In this document: in pieces, positions 6,386 to 53,614 of the stretch
Numbering within the stretch: the stretch's first letter is position 1
How the letters are laid out: every line of letters begins with the position of its first letter
Source: a virus
Reading direction: 5' to 3' (one strand)
DNA: 64,000 nt
Virus record (IMG/VR): IMGVR_UViG_3300002026_000003
Notes under the pieces: generated by a model
Told to the model about the DNA's origin: nothing
The model's database searches: none
The model's input: the letters and a program-made list of their open reading frames with translations, nothing else
Translations under genes and position numbers: made by a program

Positions 6386-6401
6386 TTGAAATCGATTACA
6401 A
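6386..6401. repeat. motif copy 3
   Basis: TTGAAATCGATTACAA (1 mismatch). Intergenic, directly abutting the terminator hairpin at 6401-6425. Confidence 0.8.
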
Positions 6402-6425
6402 AGCCCGGTTTTCCGGGCTTTTTTA
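6401..6425 (+). terminator. intrinsic terminator after dNMP kinase gene
   Basis: AAGCCCGG-TTTT-CCGGGCTT, a perfect 8-bp stem followed by TTTTTT. Confidence 0.8.
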
Positions 6426-6432
6426 TTGCCTA

Positions 6433-6460
6433 TTGCTTTTTGTGTTTGCCTTTTTGTGTT
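6433..6460 (+). repeat. tandem direct repeat TTGC(C)TTTTTGTGTT x2
   Basis: ttgctttttgtgtt / ttgcctttttgtgtt. The second unit supplies the -35 of the candidate promoter. Confidence 0.6.
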
Positions 6461-6474
6461 AAAGTAGCTATATT
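6446..6474 (+). promoter_or_regulatory. candidate sigma70-type promoter ahead of the structural module
   Basis: TTGCCT-17 nt-TATATT. Lies between terminator 6401-6425 and GTG 6507. Confidence 0.4.
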
Positions 6475-6506
6475 CACAACGGAACATCCTTTGAGGGATA
6501 TACTAA

Positions 6507-6872
6507 GTGAAAAATGGTAGACTATTTGAAGCCAAAGTAGAGGAAGTACACTCTGGCGATGACTTTATCCTCCTAGTCAATATAGGAGTCGACGGTTTGT
6601 TTAAGCGCACCCGCGTACGGTTGCATGGAGTAGATGCGCCTAACGCCTACAAAGCTAAGCCAGAAACAGAGGCTGGTAGGGTACGCGATGAGGTTAAAAA
6701 GCTAATCGGTAGTAGATGCCTAATTGATTTGGTGTCAGAAGGTAAGGGCGGCTGGATAGTTACCATGACGGTATTCGATGATGACAACCAGCCTATGTGC
6801 CTAAACAATATTTTGCGTGATCGTGGCTATGTATACAGTCCGTCAAAACAAAATCAGGAAGTGGCCGCATGA
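6507..6872 (+). CDS. staphylococcal-nuclease-like (thermonuclease) protein
   Basis: GTG start with GAGGGA upstream. VRLHGVDAPNAYK resembles the SNase RLxGIDAPE motif. Confidence 0.55.
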   Translation: MKNGRLFEAKVEEVHSGDDFILLVNIGVDGLFKRTRVRLHGVDAPNAYKAKPETEAGRVRDEVKKLIGSRCLIDLVSEGKGGWIVTMTVFDDDNQPMCLNNILRDRGYVYSPSKQNQEVAA

Positions 6873-8473
6873 CAACTAAGCATATTCGGCGTGTACGCAT
6901 GCCTAAAGTAGAAGCACGAGTGACCTCCCTTACGTCGACTAGGCGCAGGGCTGATGTTACTAGGCAAGTAGACGTTGATTACTCCAGCAGCGCTATGGGG
7001 TCTACTGCCCCAATAACCCCACCGTATGACACGCTCAGTCTAGTAGGTACGTATGACCAGAGTAATATGCTACGGCAGTGTGTAGCAGCATACGTAACGA
7101 ATATTGCTATGTACGGGTGGGAGATAGTTGCGGCCTCGCAGGATACCCCTATTGATGAAGACGAGCGTTTGGAGTTGCAGTCGTTTATAGACAATGCCAA
7201 CTCTGATGAATCGTTGATGACACTACACGCTAAGGTAGTAGAGGACTATGAGAAGGTCGGCTACGCCTTTCTGGAAATAATACGCGACAAGGCAGGTAGA
7301 GTATCCTTGCTGAGACACGCTAGGGCTACAGTAATAGGGGTATGCCCCAAGAACCCAGAACCAGTACCAATACGCTACGATGTAATGCGCGGTAAGCGAG
7401 CGTCCTTTGTTACTGAGTTAAAGACGTTTCGTCTATATGTGCAGATTTGTGGAGGCAAGAGAACGTATTTCAAGGAGTTTGGCGACCCTAGGGTGCTTAA
7501 CTACGAAACTGGTACATTCTCCACTAAAGATAATCCAGTACCCAATGACAAGGAAGCTACTGAGCTTATCCACTTTAGGCAAAATTCTGAGGATGTATAT
7601 GGTGTTCCACGTTGGATCAACCAGCTTCCTTCTATCCTAGGTAGTCGGGAAGCGGAGGAAGTTAACCTACGCTACTTTGAGGATAACACTGTACCTCCGA
7701 TGATTCTGTCAGTAGCTGGAGGTAGGCTAACTGGTGAGTCTTTCCGTGACCTTAAGAAGCTACTGAATAACCAAGGCATAGGCAAAGAGCGGCAAAACCA
7801 GATAATGCTTATAGAGGCTGTACCTGAGCGCGATAGTCTAGAGGATAAGGGTAACGTACAGCTTAAGGTAGATAAGCTAACTGACTCTAGGCCTAGCGAT
7901 GGTCTATTTAAGGATTACGATGAGGCTAACCAAGCGAAAGTACGATCCTCATTTAGGCTTCCGCCTGTAGCTGTTGGCTTATCTCAGGATGTTACATTCG
8001 CTACGGCAAACGTTTCTGCGTTTATAGCGGAAACACAAGTGTTTGCACCGGCAAGGGCTACCTTTGATGAAGTGTATAACAAGAAGTTTGTTAATCACGC
8101 TGATGGTTTGGCCTTAAAGACAGTACTACTACGTAGCAGGGCACCTGCTATTACTAATCCAGAAACCCTTATAAAGAGCCTAACTGCACTTAATGTAATG
8201 GGCGCGGTAACACCACGGTCAGCTTTGGGTGCTGCTAACAAAATCCTACAGGTAGAACTCCCGCAGTATCCAGAAAAAGGTGAGGAGGGCTATGATGCGT
8301 GGATGGATAAACCTATTATTTTCTCCAGTAAAGGACAATCTGGTAATACGGGCATTGACCCTAGCGGAGCGGGTAATACTCATGAAACTCAGGCGCAAAA
8401 AGATGCAGCTACTAAGGCTCTTGAAGCGTCTGGTTCCGTAGAGCCTCAATCACCGGAGAATGGTCAGCAATGA
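6869..8473 (+). CDS. portal protein
   Basis: 534 aa, first large gene of the head module. Central region (YGWEIV...GYAFLEIIRDKAGRVSLLRH) looks like a PBSX/HK97-type portal. Followed by protease, scaffold and capsid genes. Confidence 0.8.
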   Translation: MTTKHIRRVRMPKVEARVTSLTSTRRRADVTRQVDVDYSSSAMGSTAPITPPYDTLSLVGTYDQSNMLRQCVAAYVTNIAMYGWEIVAASQDTPIDEDERLELQSFIDNANSDESLMTLHAKVVEDYEKVGYAFLEIIRDKAGRVSLLRHARATVIGVCPKNPEPVPIRYDVMRGKRASFVTELKTFRLYVQICGGKRTYFKEFGDPRVLNYETGTFSTKDNPVPNDKEATELIHFRQNSEDVYGVPRWINQLPSILGSREAEEVNLRYFEDNTVPPMILSVAGGRLTGESFRDLKKLLNNQGIGKERQNQIMLIEAVPERDSLEDKGNVQLKVDKLTDSRPSDGLFKDYDEANQAKVRSSFRLPPVAVGLSQDVTFATANVSAFIAETQVFAPARATFDEVYNKKFVNHADGLALKTVLLRSRAPAITNPETLIKSLTALNVMGAVTPRSALGAANKILQVELPQYPEKGEEGYDAWMDKPIIFSSKGQSGNTGIDPSGAGNTHETQAQKDAATKALEASGSVEPQSPENGQQ

Positions 8474-8485
8474 AATCGATTGCAA
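8470..8485. repeat. motif copy 4
   Basis: ATGAAATCGATTGCAA (1 mismatch). Position 1-3 is the protease start codon (MKSIAK). Confidence 0.8.
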
Positions 8486-9075
8486 AGGATGTAAGGCTGC
8501 ACACTCGCTCAGCCCCTGAATGGGAGCGTATCGTAATGGCCGAGGTATTGGTGCCTGATACGCCAAACGTATTCAACGATTACTGGACTAAAGAGAATAT
8601 CAAACAAGCCGCGTATGCTTTCATGCAGCGCGGCTTTGGCATTGATATAGAGCATGATAACGTTGATGTTACGGGGGCGGTGCACGTAGTGGAGTCCTTC
8701 ATTGCCCGTTCTGGTGATCCTGATTTTATAGAGGGGTCATGGGTTATCGGCATGTATATAGCTGATGACGTTATATGGCAAGATATCCTAGATGGAAAAA
8801 TTAACGGCTACTCTTACGAGGCTTTGGTATCGTTTATGTCTGCTACACTGCAAGTACTGGACGACGGTATACGGCAAGGCATCACCGAAGAAGACCCTAT
8901 AGACGGCCACAGTCACATATTTATGGTGATGGTTGACGTAAACAATAGACCCATAGATGGCGGAACCTCCGAGGAAAATGGACATGCGCACACGATCAGT
9001 ACGCACACTATTACTGACGAGGCGGCTGGTCATGTACATCGATATAACCTAGTTACCGGAAAGGATGGAAAATGA
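8470..9075 (+). CDS. prohead protease, XkdF-like (putative)
   Basis: VMAEVLVPDTPNVFNDYWTKENIKQAAYAFMQRGFGIDIEHDN resembles the XkdF/S78_2 family. Sits between portal and scaffold. The start codon is part of motif copy 4. Confidence 0.6.
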   Translation: MKSIAKDVRLHTRSAPEWERIVMAEVLVPDTPNVFNDYWTKENIKQAAYAFMQRGFGIDIEHDNVDVTGAVHVVESFIARSGDPDFIEGSWVIGMYIADDVIWQDILDGKINGYSYEALVSFMSATLQVLDDGIRQGITEEDPIDGHSHIFMVMVDVNNRPIDGGTSEENGHAHTISTHTITDEAAGHVHRYNLVTGKDGK

Positions 9076-10532
9076 GTAAGAGTACAAAAAGGCTGGATGG
9101 CGTTGACGAAATAGTGACAAAACAAGTTGAAGTGAGTAAACTTGTGCAACCAAAGTTCTTGACGCTTACTGAAAAGCCAGCAAATCAGGTAGCGTTCAAG
9201 GTTGTTCGTGATGACAAGGGTGAGGAACCTAATATGACCAAGACAAGTGCCGTGGCTACGGAAGGTCGTCGCCACCGTATCCGCTCCACGAAACGCTCAT
9301 CTCTTCTGTACATTGAGTTTCCAGAGGGCACTACCGCTGATGAAGCTAAGGCGGCTATGGAGGAGTATGGCCTTGAGGATTATGAGCTTGTGCAGGATGG
9401 CGATAAAGTAAAGTGCAAGCGTAGCGATCTTGCCGAAATCCCAGCTAACGCTATTACCGTGCAGATTGGCGAGGGACGTAAAGCTGGCATACTTCGTTCA
9501 GAGGTACCAGTAGCTGAAATGCAAGACACTATGCCGAATATTTCGGTTGTTGCAATCGAATTCAAAAATGAGGTATTCGCAACAACTGAGGCCGTCATGG
9601 CATATTTGACGCGCCACGATATTGACTTCCTAGAAAAAGGAGTCGAAAATACCGACTCATGTATTCGTGTTACCCGTAGCGAGTACGCGGAAGACGCAGA
9701 GCTTCGCCGTGTAGAGGTAGAAACTGGCGTAGTTGCGGTAGTTACTCGTGCTGAAATATCTGATATAGTAGACGCTATTCCGTTTATTGAAGTAGTATCG
9801 GAGTCAGCATACGGTCAGTGGGGTTGGGGTCAACTAGATTTCGGCGCTCGTATGGCGGATGTAGAGTTCTGTGAGTCGGCGGAAGAGGCAACATCTACTC
9901 TGCGTCGCGTGGTGGAAGATATTTTGTTTTACAGTCAGTTGCCTGTTTCGGTACGGAAAGAACTGGTAATTCGGGCTGCGTCTCAATTCTCGGCGTACGT
10001 CGGCTCTTTGCTCGATGCACTCCCCGCGAAAGTAGTTTTACTCAACCGTTCCAATTTGGAAAAACTCAAGGAGCATAGTATGACCCAGAAGACCGAAGTT
10101 ACCGGGGCGGAAGGTCAAATTGCTGAGCGTAAGGACGATGCTACGGCTACGCCGGAAGTTAAGACCGAAGCTACGCAAGATGACAACACGCCAGTTACCC
10201 GCTCGGAATTGAAGAGCATTATTGGTGAGGCCGTGTCCGCTGCTCTCGCTGCCCAAGCTACCCCCGCTAAGGCTGAGGAAACGAAGCGTAGCGATGAGGA
10301 AGTAAAAGACAGCAAGGAAGGTGACAAGGCTGATGGTGAAAGCAATACCCTGAAGGCTGTCGAGGAAGTAGTTACTCGTTCTGTCGGTGGGCTTGCTGAT
10401 GCAGTTAAGACGATTGGTGATCGTTTGACAGCAATCGAAGGGGCCACCACTGTTCGCTCCGATGGAGTGGATAGCGCAACGTCCCAGCCGAAAGACCCGT
10501 TTGTTGGGATTTTTTCCCACGGTCGTAAGTAA
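9072..10532 (+). CDS. scaffolding-like / head accessory protein (486 aa, acidic)
   Basis: Lies between protease and major capsid. Has an acidic, low-complexity, Ala/Glu/Lys-rich C-terminal third. Confidence 0.45.
   Translation: MSKSTKRLDGVDEIVTKQVEVSKLVQPKFLTLTEKPANQVAFKVVRDDKGEEPNMTKTSAVATEGRRHRIRSTKRSSLLYIEFPEGTTADEAKAAMEEYGLEDYELVQDGDKVKCKRSDLAEIPANAITVQIGEGRKAGILRSEVPVAEMQDTMPNISVVAIEFKNEVFATTEAVMAYLTRHDIDFLEKGVENTDSCIRVTRSEYAEDAELRRVEVETGVVAVVTRAEISDIVDAIPFIEVVSESAYGQWGWGQLDFGARMADVEFCESAEEATSTLRRVVEDILFYSQLPVSVRKELVIRAASQFSAYVGSLLDALPAKVVLLNRSNLEKLKEHSMTQKTEVTGAEGQIAERKDDATATPEVKTEATQDDNTPVTRSELKSIIGEAVSAALAAQATPAKAEETKRSDEEVKDSKEGDKADGESNTLKAVEEVVTRSVGGLADAVKTIGDRLTAIEGATTVRSDGVDSATSQPKDPFVGIFSHGRK
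9550..9565. repeat. motif copy 5
   Basis: TTGCAATCGAATTCAA (1 mismatch). Inside ORF 9072, read as VAIEFK. Confidence 0.7.
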
Positions 10533-11532: not shown

Positions 11533-11565
11533 AAGGGGAGGGGCTTAACTGCTCCTCCCTTTTTG
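11533..11565 (+). terminator. intrinsic terminator after major capsid gene
   Basis: GGGAGGGGC-TTAACT-GCTCCTCCC (1 mismatch) followed by TTTTT. Confidence 0.75.
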
Positions 11566-11571: not shown

Positions 11572-11587
11572 TTGCAATCGATTTCAA
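11572..11587. repeat. motif copy 6
   Basis: TTGCAATCGATTTCAA (exact). Lies 6 nt after the capsid terminator and 19 nt before ATG 11606. Confidence 0.9.
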
Positions 11588-11885: not shown

Positions 11886-12497
11886 ATGCGCTTAGCCACT
11901 CCCGATAACGTACTACTAGCAATGGGTATTGGTAGCAATGCCGGTTCCCTTGAAGGGGCTAGTCGTGCGTTAGACCTTTCGTTTCCTATCATTGAGAATA
12001 CCCTAGAGACTAAGCTAGTAGCAGGCTCAGTGGTAGACTTCTTCAGTGATGTTGGTAAGGCTACTCAGTTTCGCCTATCCAATACTTTTGTAGATACAGA
12101 CTCTCTAGTTATACGACTGTCCGCCACAGGCGATCCTCTCATGGATGAGACCGAAGGCACGATAGTCCCAGAGACTGACTACTTCATAAATACTAATACT
12201 GGTGTGCTAGTTCTACGCAAGCCTATCGTACTAGGGGATCATGTGCTATCCGCCATGTACGATTACGGGTTGCCAGAAACTAACGGTATCCTTGAGGCCC
12301 CTTACTGGCTGCAAGAGACGGCTGTTAGCATGGCTATACTAGTACTTAACACTCACCCATCGTCTCCCGCTAACCGTAAGGACAAGACGGTAGCTAATGT
12401 AGCGGAGGCTTTACTGTCTCTAGCTAGTAAGCTACTTAATGCCTATCGTAGGCCTAGGTTGACGGTAGAGTTTCCAGTACGGTCTATAGCACTGTGA
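11886..12497 (+). CDS. putative head-tail adaptor / head completion protein
   Basis: Assigned by position between the capsid and tail genes only. Confidence 0.3.
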   Translation: MRLATPDNVLLAMGIGSNAGSLEGASRALDLSFPIIENTLETKLVAGSVVDFFSDVGKATQFRLSNTFVDTDSLVIRLSATGDPLMDETEGTIVPETDYFINTNTGVLVLRKPIVLGDHVLSAMYDYGLPETNGILEAPYWLQETAVSMAILVLNTHPSSPANRKDKTVANVAEALLSLASKLLNAYRRPRLTVEFPVRSIAL

Positions 12498-12967
12498 CCA
12501 CAGTAGTAGGTACGCGGGAGCTTGTAAAAAAGCTACAGCGAGTAAATCAAGCTGCCTTAGGGGTAGTAACCTCATCGCAGTTGCAGGATTTACTAGTAGC
12601 TCGCGTACGTGCCAGATTCGATGCAGGGGTTGCTCCTGACGGAAGTCCTTGGCCCGGACTCATGGAAGAGACTATTAAGCGTAAGCGGCGCTCACACTAT
12701 GGCAAGCCGCAAGCACCATTACAGGCTACCGGAAGACTGCGTAAGTCTATAGGCGTAACACAGTCTAATATTGGTATATTAGCCTCTGCTACAGGTTTAG
12801 GTTTTCGTATAGGCATACGAGACGCTAAGGCAGCTAGTTACGGTAGGTTGCATAACTACGGTCTGGGTGGTCAAGAGAAGCGGCAGTTTATAGGTTTGGG
12901 TGCGCTAGACGTACGGTCTGTGCGCGATTTCCTAAACCGAAATTTGAAATCGATTGCAGAGGCGTAA
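12494..12967 (+). CDS. virion morphogenesis protein (Phage_tail_S / Mu G-like, putative)
   Basis: DGSPWPGL...TIKRKRRS...LQATGRLRKSI resembles the phage virion morphogenesis family. C-terminus carries motif copy 7. Confidence 0.5.
   Translation: MTTVVGTRELVKKLQRVNQAALGVVTSSQLQDLLVARVRARFDAGVAPDGSPWPGLMEETIKRKRRSHYGKPQAPLQATGRLRKSIGVTQSNIGILASATGLGFRIGIRDAKAASYGRLHNYGLGGQEKRQFIGLGALDVRSVRDFLNRNLKSIAEA
12944..12959. repeat. motif copy 7
   Basis: TTGAAATCGATTGCAG (1 mismatch). C-terminus of ORF 12494 (LKSIAE), 10 nt before ATG 12969. Confidence 0.8.
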
Positions 12968-12968
12968 T

Positions 12969-13448
12969 ATGCCGACTATTGTTGAATTACAGGATGAACT
13001 TAGTAGCCTAGTGCGGCAGGTTCCGGCGTTCACTGATAGCGGATTCAGTGTATTCGACCTAGTGGACTTCGCAAGTAAGACAGAGCTACAACCTTTCCCT
13101 TTGGTAGGGGTGGGGTACGATGGGTGCGAACCCGTAGACAATAGTAAGGGTAACGCGGCTAATGCAGTAGCTACCGGATCAGGCTCTACTGTATTAGTCA
13201 ATTTTCAGTTTACAATAGTGATAGCTGTACAGTATCATTACGCAAGTCAGGACGATACCAAACCACAGGCATTGAATTTACTTGACGATGTACGTAAACT
13301 GGTATTAGGTTACAAAGGTGTAAATGCAAGGCCGTGGAGGTACGTAGGTGAAAGACCGGATTTATCAGCATCTGATGATGGTCTAGTGTTTTACACACAG
13401 GTATGGCAGACGGCTGTTCCAGTTGTAGGTTCTCTCAATAACCCTTAA
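12969..13448 (+). CDS. putative tail completion / terminator protein
   Basis: ATG 12969 lies just after the upstream TAA, so the track start at 12954 was rejected. Lies directly upstream of the tail tube gene. Confidence 0.35.
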   Translation: MPTIVELQDELSSLVRQVPAFTDSGFSVFDLVDFASKTELQPFPLVGVGYDGCEPVDNSKGNAANAVATGSGSTVLVNFQFTIVIAVQYHYASQDDTKPQALNLLDDVRKLVLGYKGVNARPWRYVGERPDLSASDDGLVFYTQVWQTAVPVVGSLNNP

Positions 13449-13460: not shown

Positions 13461-14210
13461 ATGGCTAACTATTACTATTCCGGCCAAGGTAGCCTGTACA
13501 TCGCTGAGCGTGATGCTACTACTGGTAAGCCGAAAGGTTTTATCCCGGTCGGTAACGTGCCCGAACTTAGCATCGATATCGAAATCACCAAGTTTGAACA
13601 TAAGGAATCGGAGAGCGGCAACCGCCTGCTTGACCTTTCCATCGTCAAAGAGAAAAAAGGTAAATTCAAGTTCAAGCTTGAGAACCTAACTCTGGATAAC
13701 CTAGCTCTTGGCCTGTACGGCGAGAAGGCTACCGTGGCTTTGGGTAACGTTACTGGCGAAAACGTCATTGCGTACAAGGGTAAGAAGCTAGCCCTAGCGC
13801 ATCCTGATGTTTCCTCCATAGTTGTTAAGGATGATGGCGACATCACCACGTACGTACTCGATACTGACTACACTGTTGATGCCAAGAACGGTACCATTAC
13901 CGTTCTAGCTACTTCAGCTATCGTAGAGTTGGATGTACTGCATGTTGCATACTCACATGCTGCCTACACCAATCTGGAAGCCTTTACGTCCGCCGCTTCG
14001 CCTGAGCGCTTCCTGCGCTTTGAAGGCCTTAACACTGTCGATAACAGTACTGTTATTATCGATATGTACCGCGCCTCTTTCGATCCTCTGACCAACTACG
14101 GTCTGATTAACGAAGAACTTGCGGCTGTGGATATGGCTGGTTCGTTGCTTGCCGATTCGCTAGTTACCTCTGGTAGCCAGTTCTTCCGCCAGCGCAACGT
14201 GGCTGCGTAA
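13461..14210 (+). CDS. major tail tube protein
   Basis: 249 aa. AAGGAG upstream; followed by a strong terminator and then the chaperone/tape-measure genes. N-terminus YSGQGSLYIAERD...VGNVPELSIDIE is tube-protein-like. Confidence 0.65.
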   Translation: MANYYYSGQGSLYIAERDATTGKPKGFIPVGNVPELSIDIEITKFEHKESESGNRLLDLSIVKEKKGKFKFKLENLTLDNLALGLYGEKATVALGNVTGENVIAYKGKKLALAHPDVSSIVVKDDGDITTYVLDTDYTVDAKNGTITVLATSAIVELDVLHVAYSHAAYTNLEAFTSAASPERFLRFEGLNTVDNSTVIIDMYRASFDPLTNYGLINEELAAVDMAGSLLADSLVTSGSQFFRQRNVAA

Positions 14211-14233
14211 GCTAGGCTGTAGAAACCAAACCA

Positions 14234-14262
14234 AGAGGCTCCTTTCGAGGGGCCTCTTTTTA
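14234..14262 (+). terminator. intrinsic terminator after major tail tube gene
   Basis: AGAGGCTCC-TTTCGA-GGGGCCTCT (9-bp stem including one G-T pair) followed by TTTTT. Confidence 0.7.
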
Positions 14263-14277
14263 CTTGTGGAGGCTATA

Positions 14278-14469
14278 ATGAAAGTAACGCTCCTTGTCAA
14301 TACTACGATCAATGGTGTATTCTACGAGTCTGGTACTGATGTAGAGGTAACGCCAGAGCAGCACGTAGAGCTAGTAATGCTAGGCTCATGCCGTAGCGAG
14401 ATACAAAGTACCAAGGTGGAAAGTAAACACTCGTCTTCTGGTAACAAATTTTTCAAACAGAAAAGGTGA
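14278..14469 (+). CDS. hypothetical protein (63 aa)
   Basis: ATG 14278 follows GGAGG; the track's GTG start at 14266 is less likely. Confidence 0.5.
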   Translation: MKVTLLVNTTINGVFYESGTDVEVTPEQHVELVMLGSCRSEIQSTKVESKHSSSGNKFFKQKR

Positions 14470-14473
14470 AATA

Positions 14474-14902
14474 ATGAATACGAATCCAGTGGTAGACGCG
14501 CTCGACACAATGGCAGAGCGTGGCAGTATTGTTACGTTGTCGAACGGTAGTGAAGTATCTGTACGAGTATGTAGTGGCCGCGTACTTCCTAAGATACTAC
14601 GCTTTGTATCTACGGTATCTACTGATCTTGGTCTATCGATTAGCGATGCCGAGGGTGTTAAAGAAAAGCTACTGGATAAGGTAGATAACATTGGTTTTAT
14701 TTTGCAATTGATTTCAAAATACACAGACGATATCTTTTGCATAGTGGCAGACCTTACTAGCTTAGGTAAAGTTGACGCAGTTGAAGATTTACCTTTGGAT
14801 GACCTAGCTAAGGTATGTCTACGGGTTGTAGAGGTGAACAAGAATTTTTTTACTCAGAGAGTCCTTCCGGTAGTGCAAGCAGCAGGCGGGACGGCTCTTT
14901 AA
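14474..14902 (+). CDS. tail assembly chaperone (G-like)
   Basis: Lies immediately upstream of the tape measure and contains the slippery run T_TTT_TTT. Confidence 0.7.
   Translation: MNTNPVVDALDTMAERGSIVTLSNGSEVSVRVCSGRVLPKILRFVSTVSTDLGLSISDAEGVKEKLLDKVDNIGFILQLISKYTDDIFCIVADLTSLGKVDAVEDLPLDDLAKVCLRVVEVNKNFFTQRVLPVVQAAGGTAL
14702..14717. repeat. motif copy 8
   Basis: TTGCAATTGATTTCAA (1 mismatch). Inside chaperone G (LQLISK). Confidence 0.75.
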
Positions 14903-40146: not shown

Positions 40147-40162
40147 TTGAAATCGATTGCAA
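40147..40162. repeat. motif copy 16
   Basis: TTGAAATCGATTGCAA (exact). Intergenic, 23 nt before fibre ATG 40185. Confidence 0.9.
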
Positions 40163-40184
40163 CTAACCATAAAGGATTTATATC

Positions 40185-44890: not shown

Positions 44891-44902
44891 AATCGATTGC
44901 AA
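44887..44902. repeat. motif copy 17
   Basis: TTGAAATCGATTGCAA (exact). Positions 2-4 form the TGA stop of ORF 44465. GGAGG and ATG 44917 follow. Confidence 0.9.
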
Positions 44903-45417: not shown

Positions 45418-46572
45418 ATGACTAGTGTCAAAATATACCGTTCCTCTGACGTAGGGGCACCTGTACTAGGTAACATAGCAGGGTCGCTCATCGGAGTATT
45501 GGATGCCTGCTTGGTTAACGGCTTTGCTGACAGGCAGGTAACCAGCATATCTAGGATTGGCTCAGTGGCTACCGCTACACTAGCGGGTCATGGCTACCAT
45601 AAATTCGATACTGTATTGGTATCCGGGGCCACGCAGACTGAGTATAACGGCACAGTGAAGGTAACAGAAGCTACTGCCGATACTTTCTCCTACGCTATAG
45701 TAGGTACGCCAACTACTCCGGCTACAGGCACGATCAACGCTAAAAAACCCGGCGCTGGTTGGACTAAAGAATTTACCGGAACCAATAAAGCTGCTTATCG
45801 AATGGGGCCGGGATCGAACCTACATTACCTCCGCGTAGATGATACTGGACTAACATCGGCAGAATGTAGAGGCTACGAATCTATGAGTAGTGTCGACGCA
45901 GGCACTGCCGCATTCCCTACTACAACGCAAATGAATGTTAGCTATTGGTGGAAGGCTGATGCAGCGGCGCGTGATTGGATGGTAATAGCGACAGATCGTA
46001 TCCTTTACTATTGGCATGACTACAGTAATACGCAATCCTCTAGGTATCTGTGGATGTTTGGTCAGATACGCGCATACAAAGCGGATGATGCTTTTGGTTC
46101 TGTTATGTTCTCCACTAACCAGCCAAACGCTAGCTATAGTTACTACTACCCTTGTACCGTAGAGTCGCATGTAGGCACCACTGGCAGCTTTAGGTTTTTG
46201 GCTAGGACATATAACCAGAGCGGTAGCTCTGTGCCCCTAGGGTTTATGGGAGACTACAGTAAAATGCGTGGTACGACGTACATAGGTCACGATTCACCTA
46301 CGACCTATGGCATACAGTACCCTCACGGCCCTGACGCAGGATTGTACGTTACCCCACTGTACATTACCGAGAACCCCGGCACTCCTGTAATACGCGGGGA
46401 GATGCCCGGACTATGGTGCCCACTACACTATGCCTCTGCTTTTAACCACGGTGATGTTTTCGGCGGCACAGGGGATATGGCAGGTAAGTACTTTATGATT
46501 GCGCACGTATTCACTACGTCTAGCCAAAAGGGCGCGTTTGCCATTGAGCTTTCGGATACTTGGGCTACTTAA
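45418..46572 (+). CDS. paralog family member 2
   Basis: N-terminus VKIYRSSDVGAPVLGNIAGSLIGVLDACLVNGFA; C-terminus IELSDTWAT. Confidence 0.6.
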   Translation: MTSVKIYRSSDVGAPVLGNIAGSLIGVLDACLVNGFADRQVTSISRIGSVATATLAGHGYHKFDTVLVSGATQTEYNGTVKVTEATADTFSYAIVGTPTTPATGTINAKKPGAGWTKEFTGTNKAAYRMGPGSNLHYLRVDDTGLTSAECRGYESMSSVDAGTAAFPTTTQMNVSYWWKADAAARDWMVIATDRILYYWHDYSNTQSSRYLWMFGQIRAYKADDAFGSVMFSTNQPNASYSYYYPCTVESHVGTTGSFRFLARTYNQSGSSVPLGFMGDYSKMRGTTYIGHDSPTTYGIQYPHGPDAGLYVTPLYITENPGTPVIRGEMPGLWCPLHYASAFNHGDVFGGTGDMAGKYFMIAHVFTTSSQKGAFAIELSDTWAT

Positions 46573-46582
46573 TAGGTGACGT

Positions 46583-47545
46583 ATGGCTAAGACAGTTCGT
46601 GTATTGCGCAGCACAGACGCTAGCGCCCCAGTTCTTACCGGTACTACTGGGTCGCTAATAGCGCTTCTTGATGCTTGCTTAGTGAATGGGTACGGTAGTT
46701 CTACGCCTCTTGGGTGGACTAAGCCGTATAGCGGCACAAACCTCGCGGCCTACCGTATGAGTACCGTAGAGGGCAGTGGAGCATATCTACGCGTTGATGA
46801 CTCCTTAACCTCTACTAATGCTGTGTATACTAGGCTAGCTGGCTACACCACCATGACGGCTATATCTACTGGTTCTGATATGTTTCCAGTAATGGCAAAC
46901 TACATGGGCTTGCGCAAGTCTAATAGCGCAGATAGTGTAGCTAGGCCTTGGGTAGTGATAGGTGACGAAGCTAGGTTCTATCTGCTGATACAGAACGGAG
47001 ACTCGGCGGGGGCTACTATATGGGATTGCTCTTTCTTTGGTGATATTGAATCTTACATAGCTAATGATGCCTACAAAGCTATGCTGGTTTGTAGGTATAG
47101 CACTAGTGGAACTTTCCCTACCTATACTGATAACCAGATACACTACATGCAGCACTATACGTGGAATAGTGTATCGTCTAGGCAAATGGCTCGCAACCAC
47201 GCGGGAGCCGCCACACCAATATATGTGGGTGCGCACACAGACTCGTTTAAGTGCGGCGCTAGTAACTACAACGCATGGTATGCTGGAGCAGGCGGGTACT
47301 TAGCGTACCCTAACGTAGCTGGTAATAGCCTATTCATGGCCCCTGTATGGATACACCAAAGTACAACTACTCCGTATGTAGTTAGAGGTCACCAACCCGG
47401 AATGTGGTGCCCCGGCCATAATAGGCCTTTGGCTAATAACGAGACCTTTACTGGGTCTGGCGCTTTAGCAGGCAAGACTTTTGAAGCATTCCACTTACAC
47501 TCCAGCGGCGAGATAATTCTAGAAACTTCTAATACGTGGGGCTAA
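46583..47545 (+). CDS. paralog family member 3
   Basis: N-terminus VRVLRSTDASAPVLTGTTGSLIALLDACLVNGYGS; C-terminus LETSNTWG. Confidence 0.6.
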   Translation: MAKTVRVLRSTDASAPVLTGTTGSLIALLDACLVNGYGSSTPLGWTKPYSGTNLAAYRMSTVEGSGAYLRVDDSLTSTNAVYTRLAGYTTMTAISTGSDMFPVMANYMGLRKSNSADSVARPWVVIGDEARFYLLIQNGDSAGATIWDCSFFGDIESYIANDAYKAMLVCRYSTSGTFPTYTDNQIHYMQHYTWNSVSSRQMARNHAGAATPIYVGAHTDSFKCGASNYNAWYAGAGGYLAYPNVAGNSLFMAPVWIHQSTTTPYVVRGHQPGMWCPGHNRPLANNETFTGSGALAGKTFEAFHLHSSGEIILETSNTWG

Positions 47546-47546
47546 T

Positions 47547-48563
47547 ATGACTGTACGAGTCTATCGATCTACTGACGTAGGCGCTCCGTCAATTGACCTA
47601 TCCATAGGGTCAATAATAACGCTATTGGATGCCTGCTTAGTTAATGGTTACGGAAGTAAGGCTGCTCTTGGCTGGACTAAGCAATTCTCCGGTACCAACA
47701 AGGCAGTATACTTGCAAGGTACTGGCGGTGCAGGTAACGCTCTTAGAGTAGTTGACGATGTAGTTAATCAGGTAGGTGGGGGAGTAACTACTGCATGTAA
47801 GCTGCATGGCGTACGTGGCGCATTGACAGTAGATACCTACAAGGGTAGGTTTGGCGATAGCGTAGGCTGCTTCATCACGAAGCCGGAGACTACGGGAGGT
47901 GGAGGATGGGTTCTAATCGGTAACGAATACTCGTTCTACCTATGCACTAAACGTGCTGGTTGGGGCAATGGATGGAGCATAGGCTATTTTGGTGATTGTT
48001 CCTCTTATGCTAGTGATCCCGCTACTGATATAGGGAAGACTATATTCTCTTTCCCTACAGCGCAGACTACTGTAGGTAGTCCACCTCCGTCTAACTATGA
48101 TGGGGTTATCGGCTTTATAAGCAGTGGCTCAGGTAACTCAGGCAGCCCCGGCACTAGACTAGCTGGTGACGTAGGCGGTATATATACAGACGCTAACGGG
48201 TACGGCGGGGTAATGATTAACTTCGCGCTAGCTATGGGGTACCTTAAAGACACTATACTGTACCCAAGTCGTGTAAGTAATGGGCTAGTATGCTCGCCAG
48301 TAATGGTAGTAATTCCTAGTAGCAGCGTACTAACTCAACCTGCTGGCTACCAAGGAGATACAGAAATACGTGGAGTTATCCCCGGAAGGTATATCCCACT
48401 GCACCACTCGTCTAAGTTTACCCCAGAGCCGCAAAAGCAGTTTACCTTTACCTCTGGGGAGATGGCGGGTAAGACTCTAGAAGCTTTTTACTCATGGGAT
48501 TACTCTACCTCTGCGCAGGGTAATACTAACTTAGTGCTATTAGAAGTATCAGATACTTGGTGA
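47547..48563 (+). CDS. paralog family member 4
   Basis: N-terminus VRVYRSTDVGAPSIDLSIGSIITLLDACLVNGYGS; C-terminus LLEVSDTW. Confidence 0.6.
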   Translation: MTVRVYRSTDVGAPSIDLSIGSIITLLDACLVNGYGSKAALGWTKQFSGTNKAVYLQGTGGAGNALRVVDDVVNQVGGGVTTACKLHGVRGALTVDTYKGRFGDSVGCFITKPETTGGGGWVLIGNEYSFYLCTKRAGWGNGWSIGYFGDCSSYASDPATDIGKTIFSFPTAQTTVGSPPPSNYDGVIGFISSGSGNSGSPGTRLAGDVGGIYTDANGYGGVMINFALAMGYLKDTILYPSRVSNGLVCSPVMVVIPSSSVLTQPAGYQGDTEIRGVIPGRYIPLHHSSKFTPEPQKQFTFTSGEMAGKTLEAFYSWDYSTSAQGNTNLVLLEVSDTW

Positions 48564-48567: not shown

Positions 48568-48987
48568 ATGCCTCAAGTCTACCCGCTGCAAAACGCACAG
48601 CGATACCTAGGTAATTCTCTAGCCGATGACACGACTGCTATATGTGTTTTGCAATCGATTGCAACTAGAGACAGCCAGCACGGCCTAGAGACTCGTGGGT
48701 TACTATTACCTTCTCCACAAAAGGTAGGAGGCTCTGCTTTACCGGGGCTAGTAGTTAACCACATTAGCGGTACCGTATCCGAAGGGTTATCGCCAGTAGC
48801 TAGGGTTGTAAGGGCGTACCGCCGTAGTGATGGTGCTTTGGTAGGTACTACAGTAAGTGTGGCCGGCACAGGGGCGTTTAGTATGCCTATCTACGGTACG
48901 CCTGAAGAGGTTACAGTGGTAGCTTTTGACGACGCCTCTGGCTTATCGTACAATGCTGCCATAGCTGATAAAGTGATACCCGCATAA
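48568..48987 (+). CDS. small protein with carboxypeptidase-regulatory-like beta-sandwich (139 aa)
   Basis: ISGTVSEGLSPVARVVRAYRRSDGALVG...GAFSMPIYG...VTVVAFDDASGLSYNAAIADKVIPA. Carries motif copy 18. Confidence 0.5.
   Translation: MPQVYPLQNAQRYLGNSLADDTTAICVLQSIATRDSQHGLETRGLLLPSPQKVGGSALPGLVVNHISGTVSEGLSPVARVVRAYRRSDGALVGTTVSVAGTGAFSMPIYGTPEEVTVVAFDDASGLSYNAAIADKVIPA
48649..48664. repeat. motif copy 18
   Basis: TTGCAATCGATTGCAA (exact). Codons 28-32 of ORF 48568 (LQSIAT). Confidence 0.9.
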
Positions 48988-49372: not shown

Positions 49373-49851
49373 AATACGTATGCTCTCATTTTTCTTTGCG
49401 CAGGGCACTACTTAGATGGGATAGCGTAACTGCTCTACTTACGCTAGCCATACTAGTTACCCTAACCCTTGGGTACAGAACCAAGTACCCGCCAGAGGTT
49501 CCTTTCCACGACATATATGCACAGGCTACCGCCTACAGAATAGATGATGTTACAGTCGTAGAGTACGACAGAACCTTCTCTGTAGATTATGACTTTACTG
49601 GAATAGTAACTAGGTTGGTGGAGTGTGAAGGTATTCGTACATTCGATATAGCTGGTATATCCCGCATATTTAAGCAGGGGCAGCACACGACACAACGCAC
49701 CTTCTCTGTTCCGTTTAGGTACCCAGAGGATACTGAATGTAAACTACGCACATTCATAGCATGGCAACCGATGGGTTCATTTAGGGAATCTGTGCACGAG
49801 ATAGTTGCAGTAGATTTCAAAGTTATAGTAGCACCAACCGAGAGGAAGTAA
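49369..49851 (+). CDS. N-terminally anchored membrane protein (160 aa)
   Basis: ATGA overlap at 49369-49372, so the track start at 49306 was rejected. TM segment SVTALLTLAILVTLTLGY. Confidence 0.5.
   Translation: MKYVCSHFSLRRALLRWDSVTALLTLAILVTLTLGYRTKYPPEVPFHDIYAQATAYRIDDVTVVEYDRTFSVDYDFTGIVTRLVECEGIRTFDIAGISRIFKQGQHTTQRTFSVPFRYPEDTECKLRTFIAWQPMGSFRESVHEIVAVDFKVIVAPTERK
49805..49820. repeat. motif copy 19 (degenerate)
   Basis: TTGCAGTAGATTTCAA (2 mismatches). Read as VAVDFK, 34 nt upstream of the holin-like start. Confidence 0.5.
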
Positions 49852-49853: not shown

Positions 49854-50141
49854 ATGAAACGCATGTATCGTGACCTTATAGTTATAGCCATTCTACTAGG
49901 CATGGGTGGTTATTTGCTTTGGGTTGACTCCGCTAATATAGTGATTATACAGGCTTTGGTTATAGGTATGTTTATGGTGGCCGGTACCCACTTGACAAGG
50001 CGTTTGCTGCTACCGCAAATAGATTTGCAATTGGTTGCAAATAAAGCATCGATAGAGCCTATCGGGGCAGCAATAGTATTCGCGGCTATCTTGCTGTTCC
50101 TTGTTTCGGTTATGTGGCTTGGCATATCAGTGTTAAAGTAA
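49854..50141 (+). CDS. holin-like protein (95 aa, about 3 TM segments)
   Basis: Three hydrophobic stretches (VIAILLGMGGYLLWV; IIQALVIGMFMVAG; AAIVFAAILLFLVSVMWLGI). Lies upstream of the endolysin. Confidence 0.55.
   Translation: MKRMYRDLIVIAILLGMGGYLLWVDSANIVIIQALVIGMFMVAGTHLTRRLLLPQIDLQLVANKASIEPIGAAIVFAAILLFLVSVMWLGISVLK
50025..50040. repeat. motif copy 20 (degenerate)
   Basis: TTGCAATTGGTTGCAA (2 mismatches). Inside the holin-like ORF (LQLVAN). Confidence 0.55.
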
Positions 50142-51754: not shown

Positions 51755-52044
51755 GACAGATACTGCTTGCCGTGTTAGCTTTCTTCATCGCCACTGGGTT
51801 TACAGCCTGCGAAAAGAAATGCGATCCTATTACTGTAGTGCAGGAGGTTAAGATTCCTGTGCCGGTTAAGTGCAAAATGACCTTACCAGTTGCGCCTATT
51901 AGCCCCATCAGCAATATACAACTAGGTGATACTTACTACCTTAAAGCTATGGCTCTTATGAAGGAGAACGAGCAGTACCGTAGATACTCTGAAGAGCTAG
52001 AAGCTGCGGCCACTGCATGTATTGAATCGCCCTTAGTACCTTGA
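51751..52044 (+). CDS. o-spanin (Rz1-like lipoprotein)
   Basis: Signal peptide plus lipobox-like FTAC (MRQILLAVLAFFIATGFTAC). ATGA overlap with the i-spanin. Confidence 0.6.
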   Translation: MRQILLAVLAFFIATGFTACEKKCDPITVVQEVKIPVPVKCKMTLPVAPISPISNIQLGDTYYLKAMALMKENEQYRRYSEELEAAATACIESPLVP

Positions 52045-52050
52045 TATAAT
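52022..52050 (+). promoter_or_regulatory. candidate sigma70-type promoter at the end of the o-spanin gene
   Basis: TTGAAT-17 nt-TATAAT (perfect -10). Confidence 0.45.
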
Positions 52051-52092
52051 ACTAGCGCAGTACCCTTTAACTCTACGAAAGGATGGTGATCT

Positions 52093-52149
52093 GTGGCTTG
52101 TAAGACCGGCGGTAAAGGTAAAGGAAAAGGCGGGGGCGGAAAGAAGTAA
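52093..52149 (+). CDS. possible 18-aa Gly/Lys-rich micropeptide (GTG start)
   Basis: gtg gct tgt aag acc ggc ggt aaa ggt aaa gga aaa ggc ggg ggc gga aag aag taa. AAGGATGG upstream. Lies inside the promoter-to-terminator unit. Confidence 0.2.
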   Translation: MACKTGGKGKGKGGGGKK

Positions 52150-52196
52150 AGCTAACGCTGACTGAACCTTGCTAGTTCACGTTCTGAAGTAAGATA

Positions 52197-52234
52197 ATAG
52201 CCCTAGGGATTAGTCTCTAGGGCTATTTGTTTTT
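52197..52234 (+). terminator. intrinsic terminator upstream of ligase gene
   Basis: ATAGCCCTAG-GGATTAGTCT-CTAGGGCTAT, a perfect 10-bp stem followed by TTGTTTTT. Confidence 0.8.
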
Positions 52235-52248
52235 GCAATCGATTTCAA
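52233..52248. repeat. motif copy 21
   Basis: TTGCAATCGATTTCAA (exact). Its first TT is the end of the terminator T-run. AGGAGG and GTG 52263 follow. Confidence 0.9.
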
Positions 52249-52262
52249 TTTAGGAGGTACCG

Positions 52263-53189
52263 GTGAAACCTATAAAAGAAGTAGTAATTAGGCCGATGCT
52301 TGCGCACTCTGAGCCTATAAATCCAGCAACGTACCCAATTCCGCCTAGCGGCGTATGGGTATCCCCAAAATTAGATGGGGTGCGGTGCATGCAGATGGCT
52401 TGCGAATCAAAGAGCAGGAAGCTGCTTAACATCCCAAATTTATTTGTGCAGAAAATGCTAGCTAATCCTGATCTGGATGGATTAGACGGAGAGTTAGTTG
52501 TAGGGCTACCAACGGCCCCTAACTGCATAAACGTAACTACGTCAGGAGTTATGACCATAGCAGGCTATCCTGACTTTACCTACTATGTATTTGATATATG
52601 GGATAAGCCTAGTCTAGGGTTTCGTAGGAGATACGCAGAGATAAAGCACAGGGTTGCAAACCTTAAGCGTCGTGGTTTTCCTGTAGCTCTAGTGCCTCAA
52701 ACACTTTGTTTTACTAACGAGGAAGCTGAGGCCGCCATAGGTGCCTTCTATGAGGCTGGCTACGAGGGTGGTATTGTACGTAGCTACAATGATCGTTATA
52801 AGTACAATCGATCAACACTCAATGAAGGGTATCTACTGAAGGTAAAGGAGTCGGTAGATGCAGAGGCACGTATCGTGGACTTCATAGAGATGAACCATAA
52901 CGACAATGAGGCCACAGTAAATGAACTTGGCCTAACCAAACGATCTACCCATAAGGATAATAAGCGTGGGGCAGGTACTCTAGGTCGTATGGTGGGTATT
53001 GACCTAGTTACAGGTGATGAGATAAAAATAGGCCCCGGCAAGATGACGGCAGAGGAAAAGCTGCACGTATGGATGAACAAAGAACTGTATCGAAATAAGA
53101 TATCGAAGTATCGGTACGGTAAGCATGGAGTAAAGGATAAGCCGCGTTTCCCAAGACATATTGTGTGGCGCGACCCTATCGACGTGTGA
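52263..53189 (+). CDS. ATP-dependent DNA ligase
   Basis: GTG start after AGGAGG. Motif I SPKLDGVRC (KxDG), LDGELV, YYVFDI, EGGIVR and LLKVK match nucleotidyltransferase motifs I, III, IIIa, IV and V. Confidence 0.85.
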   Translation: MKPIKEVVIRPMLAHSEPINPATYPIPPSGVWVSPKLDGVRCMQMACESKSRKLLNIPNLFVQKMLANPDLDGLDGELVVGLPTAPNCINVTTSGVMTIAGYPDFTYYVFDIWDKPSLGFRRRYAEIKHRVANLKRRGFPVALVPQTLCFTNEEAEAAIGAFYEAGYEGGIVRSYNDRYKYNRSTLNEGYLLKVKESVDAEARIVDFIEMNHNDNEATVNELGLTKRSTHKDNKRGAGTLGRMVGIDLVTGDEIKIGPGKMTAEEKLHVWMNKELYRNKISKYRYGKHGVKDKPRFPRHIVWRDPIDV

Positions 53190-53195
53190 TATAGT
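53187..53195 (+). promoter_or_regulatory. candidate extended -10 promoter element
   Basis: TGATATAGT (TGnTATAgT) overlapping the ligase stop codon. No convincing -35. Confidence 0.25.
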
Positions 53196-53276
53196 ACTAC
53201 CAGTTTCACAGGGCGCAAGACGGAAAGACAACACCCTGTACTTAGCCCGCAAGGGTATTTTTACAGGAGCGATACC

Positions 53277-53528
53277 ATGAGTGAATTAGGTGCAGTTGTA
53301 GCAAAGATGGTGTGTAACACGATGGAGACTCACGAGTATTCCCACAACTACTCGCAGCGCAAAGTAAGGCTAGGAGCAGTGTGCGGTAATAGTGGTGAGA
53401 ACGCAGCCTTTACTAAGGCTACCCCTTCGGGTGAATGCTGGATGCAGATTGACGCAAGCGCCCCGGCAGCGGCCTTCTTCATACCGGGAAAGAAGTACTA
53501 TGTAACTTTTACTGAAGCACCTGACTGA
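53277..53528 (+). CDS. hypothetical protein (83 aa)
   Basis: AGGAG upstream; followed by a terminator. Confidence 0.55.
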   Translation: MSELGAVVAKMVCNTMETHEYSHNYSQRKVRLGAVCGNSGENAAFTKATPSGECWMQIDASAPAAAFFIPGKKYYVTFTEAPD

Positions 53529-53561
53529 CGGTTGACCCGTAGTAACCTGAAGTAGCACAAT

Positions 53562-53600
53562 GGCCCTTGGAATTCGTTTCGAGGGCCTTTTTGTTTTTTT
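53562..53600 (+). terminator. intrinsic terminator upstream of AAA+ gene cluster
   Basis: GGCCCTTG...CGAGGGCC stem followed by TTTTTGTTTTTTT. Confidence 0.75.
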
Positions 53601-53614
53601 GCAATCGATTTCAA
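53599..53614. repeat. motif copy 22
   Basis: TTGCAATCGATTTCAA (exact). Its first TT is the end of the terminator T-run; 71 nt before ATG 53685. Confidence 0.9.

Follow-up and report, generated by a model that had tools for sequence, protein, structure and literature searches.

A dispersed palindromic motif at gene and transcription-unit boundaries of large siphoviruses, a putative operator of a phage-encoded regulator

INTRODUCTION

Short binding sites dispersed over a whole replicon are known from phages, plasmids, and bacterial chromosomes. The C1 operators of phage P1 are asymmetric 17-bp sites located at promoters and scattered over a genome of about 94 kb, and the KorB operator OB of plasmid RK2 is a 13-bp palindrome in 12 copies, some just upstream of a −35 hexamer and others remote from promoters. 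On the Bacillus chromosome, RacA has about 25 dispersed palindromic binding sites, and the stoperators of mycobacteriophages are recognized by the immunity repressor of phages that are temperate and integrate. In the Cluster A mycobacteriophages, such as L5 and Bxb1, stoperators are 13- to 14-bp repressor sites numbering about 24 to 36 per genome (PMC4351075). Cluster O mycobacteriophages, which are not obviously temperate, carry more than 30 copies per genome of a 17-bp dyad repeat, TGTTCGGNNNCCGAACA, with about one-third intergenic, one-third near gene starts, and one-third intragenic, for which a dimeric binder was predicted (PMC4351075). The RsaL operator of Pseudomonas aeruginosa, the 15-bp TATGnAAnTTnCATA, is bound by an RsaL dimer (PMC5314801). 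Here, we describe a dispersed 16-bp motif, TTGCAA-TCGA-TTGCAA, in a stretch of 64,000 nucleotides of the virus record IMGVR_UViG_3300002026_000003 (the window) and the family to which it belongs in related phages.

No description of this motif family was found in the literature, searched with exact strings and among papers mentioning phages SM1, DLP3, or DLP5. The family appears to be newly described and, by analogy, resembles the stoperators, the Cluster O repeats, and the P1 C1 and KorB operators in kind. By the same comparison, the closest described case is the Cluster O repeat, which is likewise dyad symmetric with a variable center and occurs in tens of copies between and within genes. 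The sequence (TTGCAA-N4-TTGCAA) and the phage group (phages of Proteobacteria) are unrelated to Cluster O; the resemblance is one of kind and not of descent. Whereas Cluster O repeats are not closely tied to translation starts and mostly not to predicted promoters (PMC4351075), the motif shows statistically strong links to terminators, Shine-Dalgarno (SD) sequences, and, in relatives, −35 hexamers.

As with stoperators, which lie mostly in short intergenic gaps at stop and start codons, tens of copies are spread genome-wide (PMC4351075). Stoperators are thought to act on the elongating polymerase and not at promoters, and an action on read-through is likewise part of the proposal made here for the motif. 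They are asymmetric, however, and their orientation relative to transcription is described as important to the proposed function, so that the palindromic motif fails their defining asymmetric and oriented feature. The motif phages further differ in that they have no known immunity repressor, infect Proteobacteria, and carry many copies fused to intrinsic terminators. With P1 C1 they share a proposed single regulator with many operators on about 100 kb, some operators adjoining promoters, and possible plasmid persistence (in the relative DLP5); the copies are more numerous and symmetric, and no C1-like gene was seen here. Like OB, the motif is a dispersed palindrome lying directly upstream of a −35 hexamer or far from any promoter, and, as with KorB, one protein is proposed here to combine global repression with DNA organization; KorB is a ParB-family protein with a partner ATPase, whereas the candidate binder here is MerR-like. 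The RsaL operator has a similar half-site, TGnAA with a free third base (compare TTGMAA), and differs in having 1 bp between the arms instead of 4.

RESULTS AND DISCUSSION

A dyad-symmetric 16-mer in 27 copies

The original prediction, made from the letters of the window alone, had described a motif at terminators and upstream of ribosome-binding sites and had counted 27 copies of it. Its sequence had not been given and was derived here from the four sets of positions cited, to all of which TTGCAATCGATTTCAA or a near reverse complement of it was common. The motif is the dyad-symmetric 16-mer TTGMAATCGATTKCAA, in which two TTGCAA arms flank TCGA. A rescan with up to two mismatches also gave 27 copies in the window, against an expectation from shuffles of 0.22 for the 16-mer with up to three mismatches. 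Variation was confined to positions 4 (C/A) and 13 (G/T), which vary independently of each other and are non-complementary in 19 of the 27 copies, where the predicted RNA hairpin energy is 0; the perfect palindromes are predicted to form hairpins of just −1.3 to −3.5 kcal/mol. Both orientations of the asymmetric positions were found at boundaries. Symmetry that is kept without base pairing indicates recognition of duplex DNA by a symmetric dimer and not a hairpin. Invariant arms around a variable center are the classical pattern of an operator for a helix-turn-helix (HTH) dimer, with the arms in successive major grooves.

For the analysis of the flanks, 131 non-redundant copies from the window and related contigs were pooled and oriented by gene direction. 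No conserved −10, −35, or directional element was found around them, and the 60-nt flank of the 47 intergenic copies of the window and related loci contained no conserved asymmetric element. Outside the motif, conservation was limited to a T at −1 and an A at +17, by which the palindrome is extended, and to a trace of the SD G. The gap from the motif end to the SD was 1 to 6 nt in many copies of the window and relatives.

A location in the gap from stop codon to SD, or on top of the start codon, would also suit an element acting at the RNA level, that is, a hairpin or a protein-bound mRNA site for processing, message stability, or translation initiation, and in some relatives nearly all copies are perfect palindromes. 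The mismatched arms and negligible folding energies in the window speak against it, and the comparison of five lineages shows a constant stem around a changing loop, the reverse of what structural covariation would give. Copies in the middle of genes are conserved in place, and scans of the window with Rfam and for tRNAs gave no match. We regard an RNA element as very improbable. A structured RNA such as an RNase III site or a boxB-like hairpin was considered as well, and no covarying stem was found.

The motif adjoins terminators, starts, and stops

The window has a G+C content of 47.5%, with all credible genes on the plus strand, and represents part of a large siphovirus with portal, protease, capsid, tail, tape measure, and fiber genes between 6.5 and 49 kb, followed by lysis genes near 50 kb and by genes for a ligase, an AAA+ ATPase, a DnaB-like helicase, and DNA polymerase I. 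Terminator scans of the plus strand returned exactly five strong intrinsic terminators, the same five named in the original prediction, and agreed that four of them adjoin a motif copy. After the major capsid gene, a terminator with a 12-bp stem (11533 to 11564; 11533 to 11562 in the scan) is followed by TTGCAATCGATTTCAA at 11572 to 11587, 18 nt before the ATG at 11606; this adjacency had been predicted, with a gap of 6 nt, and the gap is 7 nt past the first T-run. The 14-bp stem at 52196 to 52234 including the T-run (scan, 52196 to 52227) runs into TTGCAATCGATTTCAA at 52233 to 52248, which ends 14 nt before the GTG at 52263 of the ATP-dependent DNA ligase gene, and the 11-bp stem at 53562 to 53600 including the T-run (scan, 53562 to 53587) is fused to TTGCAATCGATTTCAA at 53599 to 53614, 70 nt before the ATG at 53685 of the AAA+ ATPase gene. 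A direct reading of both junctions showed, as had been noted, that the last two T residues of the T-run are the first two bases of the motif. At the fourth terminator (6400 to 6429; scan, 6400 to 6421), which has a 9-bp stem with 6 GC pairs and a T-run, the reversed order noted earlier was seen: TTGAAATCGATTACAA at 6386 to 6401 begins 4 nt past the stop of open reading frame (ORF) 5863-6381, and its end overlaps the foot of the hairpin. The fifth terminator lies at 14233 to 14258. In permutations, four or more of five terminators were adjoined with P = 0.007 when 10 sites were confined to non-coding DNA and with P < 5e-5 under free placement.

The permutations showed enrichment at other boundaries, too. 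Non-coding DNA makes up 4.3% of the window and holds 10 copies (1.2 expected), and a start codon lies between −16 and +30 nt from the motif end in 11 copies (1.5 expected). Within 110 nt of a start codon, 19 copies were counted against 7.5 ± 2.3 expected, close to the earlier estimate of 18 against 7 to 8. The motif begins with a start codon at 8470 (ATGAAATCG...) and 55351 (ATGCAATCG...). The former copy (ATGAAATCGATTGCAA, 8470 to 8485) supplies the ATG of the protease gene 8470-9075 and, at 8471 to 8473, the TGA stop of the portal gene; the latter (ATGCAATCGATTGCAA, 55351 to 55366) supplies the ATG of ORF 55351-55959, with GGAGG upstream. The TGA stop of the upstream gene lies inside the motif in three copies, the other two both reading TTGAAATCGATTGCAA: the copy at 34186 to 34201 holds the stop of ORF 33956-34189 and ends 12 nt before the ATG at 34214, and that at 44887 to 44902 holds the stop of ORF 44465-44890 and ends 14 nt before the ATG at 44917. 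Of the 27 copies, 13 are intragenic. The enrichment at terminators, at starts, and in non-coding DNA bears out the proposal that the motif marks transcription-unit and gene boundaries, and among the functions suggested for it, a roadblock operator or regulator site fits best.

Where the motif covers a start codon, it encodes the N terminus M-(Q/K)-S-I-(A/S) in the clade of the window (e.g., MQSIA, MKSIA, and MKSIS) and MQTLA in SM1, so that unrelated proteins share their motif-encoded first five residues. Such copies were found at 8470 and 55351 in the window, at 9209 in the related locus L035, at 16210 in L125, and at 3840 and 80846 in SM1.

The statement that no sigma70 promoter separates the motif from the next start holds at 11572 and 52233, where just 18 and 14 nt are available, and fails at 53599. 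The 70-nt leader there contains the −10-like hexamer TAGAAT (53653 to 53658) with a weak −35, and its orthologue in L067 reads TTGAGA-17-TAGAAT; this case is therefore not promoter-free. Sigma70-like matches were no commoner in the window than in shuffles. The motif had also been proposed as the sole conserved element available to restart transcription past the terminators. Read-through is a sufficient explanation for expression of the genes that follow 11572 and 52233. In siphoviruses, the capsid gene is commonly followed by a partial terminator, and read-through transcripts for the ligase gene could come from a sigma70-like promoter at 52022 to 52050 on the plus strand (TTGAAT-17-TATAAT with TG, a 10/12 match), about 150 nt upstream of the terminator at 52196. 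The whole stretch from 52022 to 52235, upstream of the ligase gene, consists of this good promoter match, about 150 nt of untranslated sequence, and the strongest terminator of the window, and could be a leader or attenuator or a small RNA, with no match in Rfam.

A phage-specific promoter, at which a phage-modified or phage-encoded RNA polymerase would start at the 3' edge of the motif and make short SD-bearing leaders, was among the functions originally suggested. The order of terminator, motif, SD, and start codon without room for sigma70 elements at 11572 and 52233, the short distance from motif to SD, and the shuffle-level frequency of sigma70-like matches would suit it. The dyad symmetry, however, gives no direction and no asymmetric flank is conserved, and start codons inside the motif at 8470 and 55351, and at 3840 and 80846 in SM1, mean that initiation downstream would truncate the gene. 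At 6386, as at this locus in many relatives, the motif comes before the terminator; 13 copies lie within genes; and phages L338C and HJ05 have the motif upstream of sigma70-like promoters that are themselves complete. Among the window proteins scanned, which comprised not every gene and came from 64 of about 102 kb, none was recognized as an RNA polymerase or sigma factor. This suggestion is thus improbable.

The motif was compared with known promoter classes, of which the MerR-type and sigma54 geometries were rejected. The directional conserved sequence that contains or fixes the transcription start in T7-class and T4-late-class promoters was not found. In MerR-type promoters, the dyad lies between −35 and −10 elements 19 to 20 bp apart; here, SD and start codon follow the motif within 9 to 22 nt with no −10 downstream, and where promoters adjoin the motif, it lies 4 to 11 bp upstream of the −35. 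The sigma54 promoter TGGCAC-N5-TTGCW differs on direct reading, the arms being TTGCAA without GG and the spacing 1 bp shorter.

Conservation in place among uncultivated relatives

No isolated phage matched the window at the DNA level, and relatives appeared at the protein level only. The exact motif was found in more than 115 stretches of IMG/VR. Many of these, on contigs of 46 to 64% G+C, share the gene order of the window and encode proteins with 40 to 76% identity to its products. The search for prophage relatives in bacterial genomes with the capsid protein gave one distant match, in a metagenome-assembled genome (MAG).

The copies were found at the same places in the relatives. Some 110 nt before the nuclease and portal genes, the order of motif and then terminator recurs in at least 10 related loci and in SM1; in the window, a sigma70-like promoter, TTGCCT-17-TATATT (6446 to 6474, plus strand; consensus match only), lies upstream of these two genes. 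The copies after the capsid gene and at the portal/protease junction are retained, and the copy about 70 nt upstream of the AAA+ ATPase gene has equal spacing in L067 and SM1. At 60452 to 60467, TTGAAATCGATTTCAA follows directly on the stop of the DnaB-like gene at 60451, 12 nt before the ATG at 60480, and the same junction carries the motif in L045, L088, and L098.

Intragenic copies are also kept in place. The orthologues of ORF 9072-10532, of the tail chaperone, and of the tape measure gene contain the motif in relatives as in the window, where it reads TTGCAATCGAATTCAA at 9550 to 9565 (same place in 6 relatives, with unalignable flanks), TTGCAATTGATTTCAA at 14702 to 14717 in the tail-chaperone-like ORF 14474-14902 (encoding LQLIS), and TTGAAATCGATTGCAC at 19874 to 19889, about 260 nt from the end of the tape measure gene. 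At the three intragenic places compared, the 16 bases of the motif were 84 to 89% identical between relatives and the flanks 32 to 45%, and the orthologues of ORF 9072-10532 did not share a reading frame. The much higher identity of the motif than of its flanks indicates that these copies are kept by selection at the DNA level. L098 and L082 also share the place of a further intragenic copy, TTGAAATCGATTGCAC at 63513 to 63528 in ORF 63423-63869.

Identical sequences at gene boundaries might alternatively serve as recombination linkers, promoting cassette exchange through phage recombination proteins. Some relatives have extra genes inserted at motif junctions (L061 and L100, for instance, have them between portal and protease), and relatives encode RecA/UvsX-like, RuvC-like, and exonuclease genes. 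Exchange by homology needs neither arms that are invariant at about 30% protein identity nor strict dyad symmetry, however, and leaves unexplained the fixed distances to terminators and promoters and the conserved intragenic copies. We give this explanation hardly any credence.

The motif family in isolated phages

By portal protein, the nearest isolates were Pseudomonas phage SM1 and its kin (50% identity), followed at greater distance by Rhizobium, Aeromonas, and Stenotrophomonas phages. All carry the family form TGCAA-N4-TTGCA, in which the arms are invariant and the 4-bp center is specific to the lineage, being TCGA in the clade of the window. The motif reads TGCAA-RCGY-TTGCA in SM1 (Pseudomonas, 32 copies), TGCAA-TCAA/TTGA-TTGCA in DLP5 (Stenotrophomonas, 35 copies), TTGCAA-CYRG-TTGCAA in HJ05 (Aeromonas, 21 copies), and TGCAA-CNNG-TTGCA in L338C (Rhizobium, 34 copies in 80 kb).

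In the window, SM1, DLP5, and HJ05, nearly all variants of the center can be derived from a palindromic tetramer through C-to-T transitions, with changes of TCGA to TTGA/TCAA, CCGG to CTGG/CCAG, and GCGC to GCGT/ACGC. DLP5 has no TCGA center at all, and a bias of 8:1 in the orientation of its intergenic copies is no more than a hint. Since ParB_N-methyltransferase fusions are encoded by these phages, methylation of the motif center is conceivable.

The motif starts 4 to 8 nt past terminator hairpins in the window, DLP5, HJ05, and L338C, so that the U-tract runs into the motif. In SM1, the single case of a motif after a terminator has a distance of 18 nt, and the reverse order is also present, as at 6386 in the window. 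Ten copies in L338C lie 6 to 11 nt upstream of a sigma70-like −35 (near-consensus TTGACA-17-TAGATT) against 0.23 expected, and three copies in HJ05 lie at the same distance against 0.16 expected. Several of the promoter-linked copies of L338C come after a terminator, which gives the full order of terminator, motif, and promoter. This location upstream of complete promoters indicates that the motif accompanies host-type promoters and does not replace them. The one counterpart in the window is TTGCAATCGATTGCAA at 30362 to 30377, 1 nt past the stop at 30360 and 4 nt before the sigma70-like promoter TTGCAA-17-TATAGT (30382 to 30410, plus strand; consensus match only) upstream of ORF 30434. Three TTGCAA hexamers follow in a row at 30362 to 30387 (TTGCAATCGATTGCAATTTGTTGCAA), the third being the −35 of this promoter. 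L338C (L129 and L130) carries a second repeat in about 10 to 13 copies, TTGACAAAGGATCGGTTC-N5-TAGATT, a promoter consensus with a conserved spacer (e.g., at 42329, 50652, 59719, 77327, and 79757), with the palindrome 6 to 11 nt before almost all of them.

Copy density was 0.27 to 0.43 per kb across all five lineages, and the spacing was more even than random, the coefficient of variation of the gaps being 0.67 in the window (P = 0.02), 0.57 in SM1 (P = 6e-4), 0.43 in DLP5 (P < 2e-4), 0.60 in HJ05 (P = 0.01), and 0.67 in L338C (P = 0.008). A dispersed 16-bp palindrome with conserved density and even spacing in all lineages, and with intragenic copies conserved in place, is what sites for genome organization or segregation in the style of ParB-parS, KorB OB, or RacA ram would look like; they would serve compaction, partition, or positioning, with a secondary effect on transcription. 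DLP5 is maintained as a phagemid, relatives encode ParB_N-domain proteins, and RacA is among the top fold matches of the candidate binder described below. The fixed distances of 1 to 6 nt to the SD, 4 to 8 nt from hairpins, and 6 to 11 bp to the −35 are left unexplained, however, no ParA was seen, and the ParB_N proteins look like methyltransferase partners. No ParB-family protein was recognized in the window, and no HTH was evident in the ParB_N proteins of relatives on reading their sequences (without a domain scan). Segregation is an unlikely primary function.

A MerR-like protein as the candidate binder

Comparison of SM1 with DLP5 gave a short list of shared genes, one of which had a recognized sequence-specific DNA-binding domain. 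The encoded protein of 95 to 180 amino acids matches MerR_1 near the Pfam threshold (20 to 28 bits), and in the relatives its gene lies between those for the superfamily 2 (SF2) helicase and RecA. A profile search found the MerR-like gene at the same position in SM1, L338C, and HJ05 (gp82) and, weakly, in DLP5 (gp059), and it is also present in contigs of the window clade that carry the TCGA motif. The AlphaFold model of the protein was confident, with a predicted local distance difference test (pLDDT) score of 85, and its top PDB fold matches were nearly all MerR-type winged-helix proteins (NmlR, RacA, BldC, and CvkR). From this sequence and fold evidence, the conserved MerR-like winged-helix protein is the leading candidate for the binder of the motif. 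In SM1, the ORF (L116 39853-40362) would encode 169 amino acids by homology and is annotated as the 62-amino-acid hypothetical protein gp044 (40174 to 40362); many database homologues are called as forms of 95 to 110 amino acids.

Comparison of the small window proteins with PHROGs and Pfam recognized one candidate DNA-binding protein and no further one. It is an 82-amino-acid RsaL-like HTH protein encoded at 2237 to 2485 (PF22495, E = 1.7e-17). The hidden Markov model of its family matched in this phage only and not in SM1 or the related loci examined, and the absence of the gene from SM1 and related motif-bearing loci rules it out as the family binder. Cellular proteins of 72 amino acids are the nearest homologues of this protein, and the only two named to an organism come from Sterolibacterium and Sulfuritalea MAGs (Betaproteobacteria); the protein may be a clue to the host or may interfere with host quorum sensing. 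The ParB_N proteins of the relatives, about 50% identical between lineages with differing motif centers, were considered as binders and judged less likely, no HTH being evident on reading of their sequences.

A conserved 385-amino-acid protein encoded in L125 at 13660 to 14817, with homologues in SM1 (gp050), HJ05, and DLP5 (gp066), has a lysine-, alanine-, and proline-rich stretch like that of histone H1 or AlgP (KKAAKAAPKKTAAKAAKK...) and may be a phage nucleoid-associated protein. Its gene is located near two ParB_N-domain genes and a MarR-like gene.

The motif as an operator at transcription-unit boundaries

With the anatomy, statistics, and cross-lineage conservation of the motif as observed above, we propose with moderate confidence that it is an operator, at which a dimeric regulator encoded by the phage would bind duplex DNA and act at the boundaries of transcription units, with the MerR-like protein as candidate binder. 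Binding by a protein, the identity of that protein, and the sign of the regulation are all inferred. The TTGCAA arms are 10 bp apart and face the same side of the helix, so that one subunit would contact each arm, and the 4-bp center would be read indirectly and drift between phage lineages. The sites are fused to terminator T-runs or lie in the gaps between stop codon and SD, a few base pairs before host-type −35 hexamers, and at roughly even intervals of 2 to 3 kb in long genes. On a genome of some 100 kb that is transcribed in one direction, the bound protein would gate transcription, repressing the promoters next to it and, as proposed for stoperators, forming a block or insulator against read-through; this would provide temporal control or silence an episomal prophage. 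A global regulator of this kind is favored because of the placement of the sites, their resemblance to stoperators and to P1 C1 and KorB sites, and the lifestyle of DLP5 and DLP3, both of which are temperate, with DLP5 maintained as a phagemid (PMC7326821 and PMC5834331), a state that needs silencing of about 100 kb.

Several points weigh against this proposal. A roadblock inside the T-run would stall the polymerase before the terminator is transcribed, so that the fusion of terminator and motif is not simply explained, and a center near −50 is unusual for a repressor, activation being equally possible there. SM1-type phages are described as lytic. A structural or segregation role, or titration of the regulator by replicating DNA, would be equally compatible with the even spacing and with intragenic copies that are conserved in place. 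As to the binder, the E values of the fold matches were weak (0.08 or higher), and the MerR-like gene was found neither in the window nor in the 3.5 kb added downstream by short Logan contigs, which also extended the window by 1.8 kb upstream; from the gene order of clade relatives, it should lie about 1 kb beyond the recovered sequence. The co-occurrence of motif and gene is suggestive, with no phage lacking both among those compared.

A more specific version, which we regard as unlikely, is that the MerR-like dimer, bound at U-tract ends and at about 30 evenly spaced sites, sets the efficiencies of all terminators and junctions. Each replicated genome would add about 30 binding sites, so that replication would titrate the protein and time the late switch, and the arrangement would be conserved in phages of Alpha- and Gammaproteobacteria. 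If true, this would make the array a boundary system gated by a protein, of a type without a described precedent.

A phage that has some 100 kb of DNA and all its genes on one strand must divide its genome into units that are timed. A single motif, a single candidate protein, and the cultivable models SM1, DLP5, and HJ05 offer a concrete handle on this regulation in a group that comprises Samunavirus, Delepquintavirus, L338C-like phages, and many uncultivated relatives, with a motif family spanning phages of Pseudomonas, Stenotrophomonas, Aeromonas, and Rhizobium. The family may also help to explain the function of the Cluster O repeats, puzzling since 2015. SM1-like and DLP-like phages are considered for therapy, and whether the system silences the genome in a phagemid state matters in practice.

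Remaining copies and neighboring features

Further copies at boundaries include TTGCAATCGATTTCAA at 2930 to 2945, which covers the last codons of ORF 2717-2953 and is directly followed by AGGAG, 12 nt before a possible TTG start at 2958; TTGAAATCGATTGCAG at 12944 to 12959, at the junction of ORFs 12494-12967 and 12969-13448 and 9 nt before the ATG; and the intergenic TTGAAATCGATTGCAA at 40147 to 40162, 22 nt before the ATG at 40185. The degenerate copy TTGAAATCAATTACAA (23080 to 23095) fills the gap between ORFs 21542-23077 and 23099-25204, and the weak copy TTGCAGTAGATTTCAA (49805 to 49820), with two mismatches, lies 33 nt before the ATG at 49854. Within genes, TTGCAATTGATTTCAA was found at 4959 to 4974 (ORF 4085-5164), TTGCAATCGATTGCAA at 19355 to 19370 (tape measure gene), at 37574 to 37589 (42 nt past the ATG at 37532), and at 48649 to 48664 (ORF 48568-48987), TTGCAATCGATTGCAT at 39240 to 39255 (ORF 37947-39515), the weak TTGCAATTGGTTGCAA with two mismatches at 50025 to 50040, and both TTGCAATCGATTTCAT (57629 to 57644) and TTGAAATTGATTGCAA (57926 to 57941) in ORF 57178-58614.

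Three consecutive paralogous tail genes at 45418 to 48563, for proteins of 384, 320, and 338 amino acids, all match phrog_9600 and phrog_9998; the motif at 44887 lies just upstream of the preceding gene and that at 48649 in the following gene. Upstream of the window start, contig L119 ends (positions 1 to 60) with a tandem CAACCACCAAAG-type repeat inside an ORF, and at 930 to 960 it carries a degenerate motif copy, TTGTAATTGATTACAA, directly before an SD and start codon.

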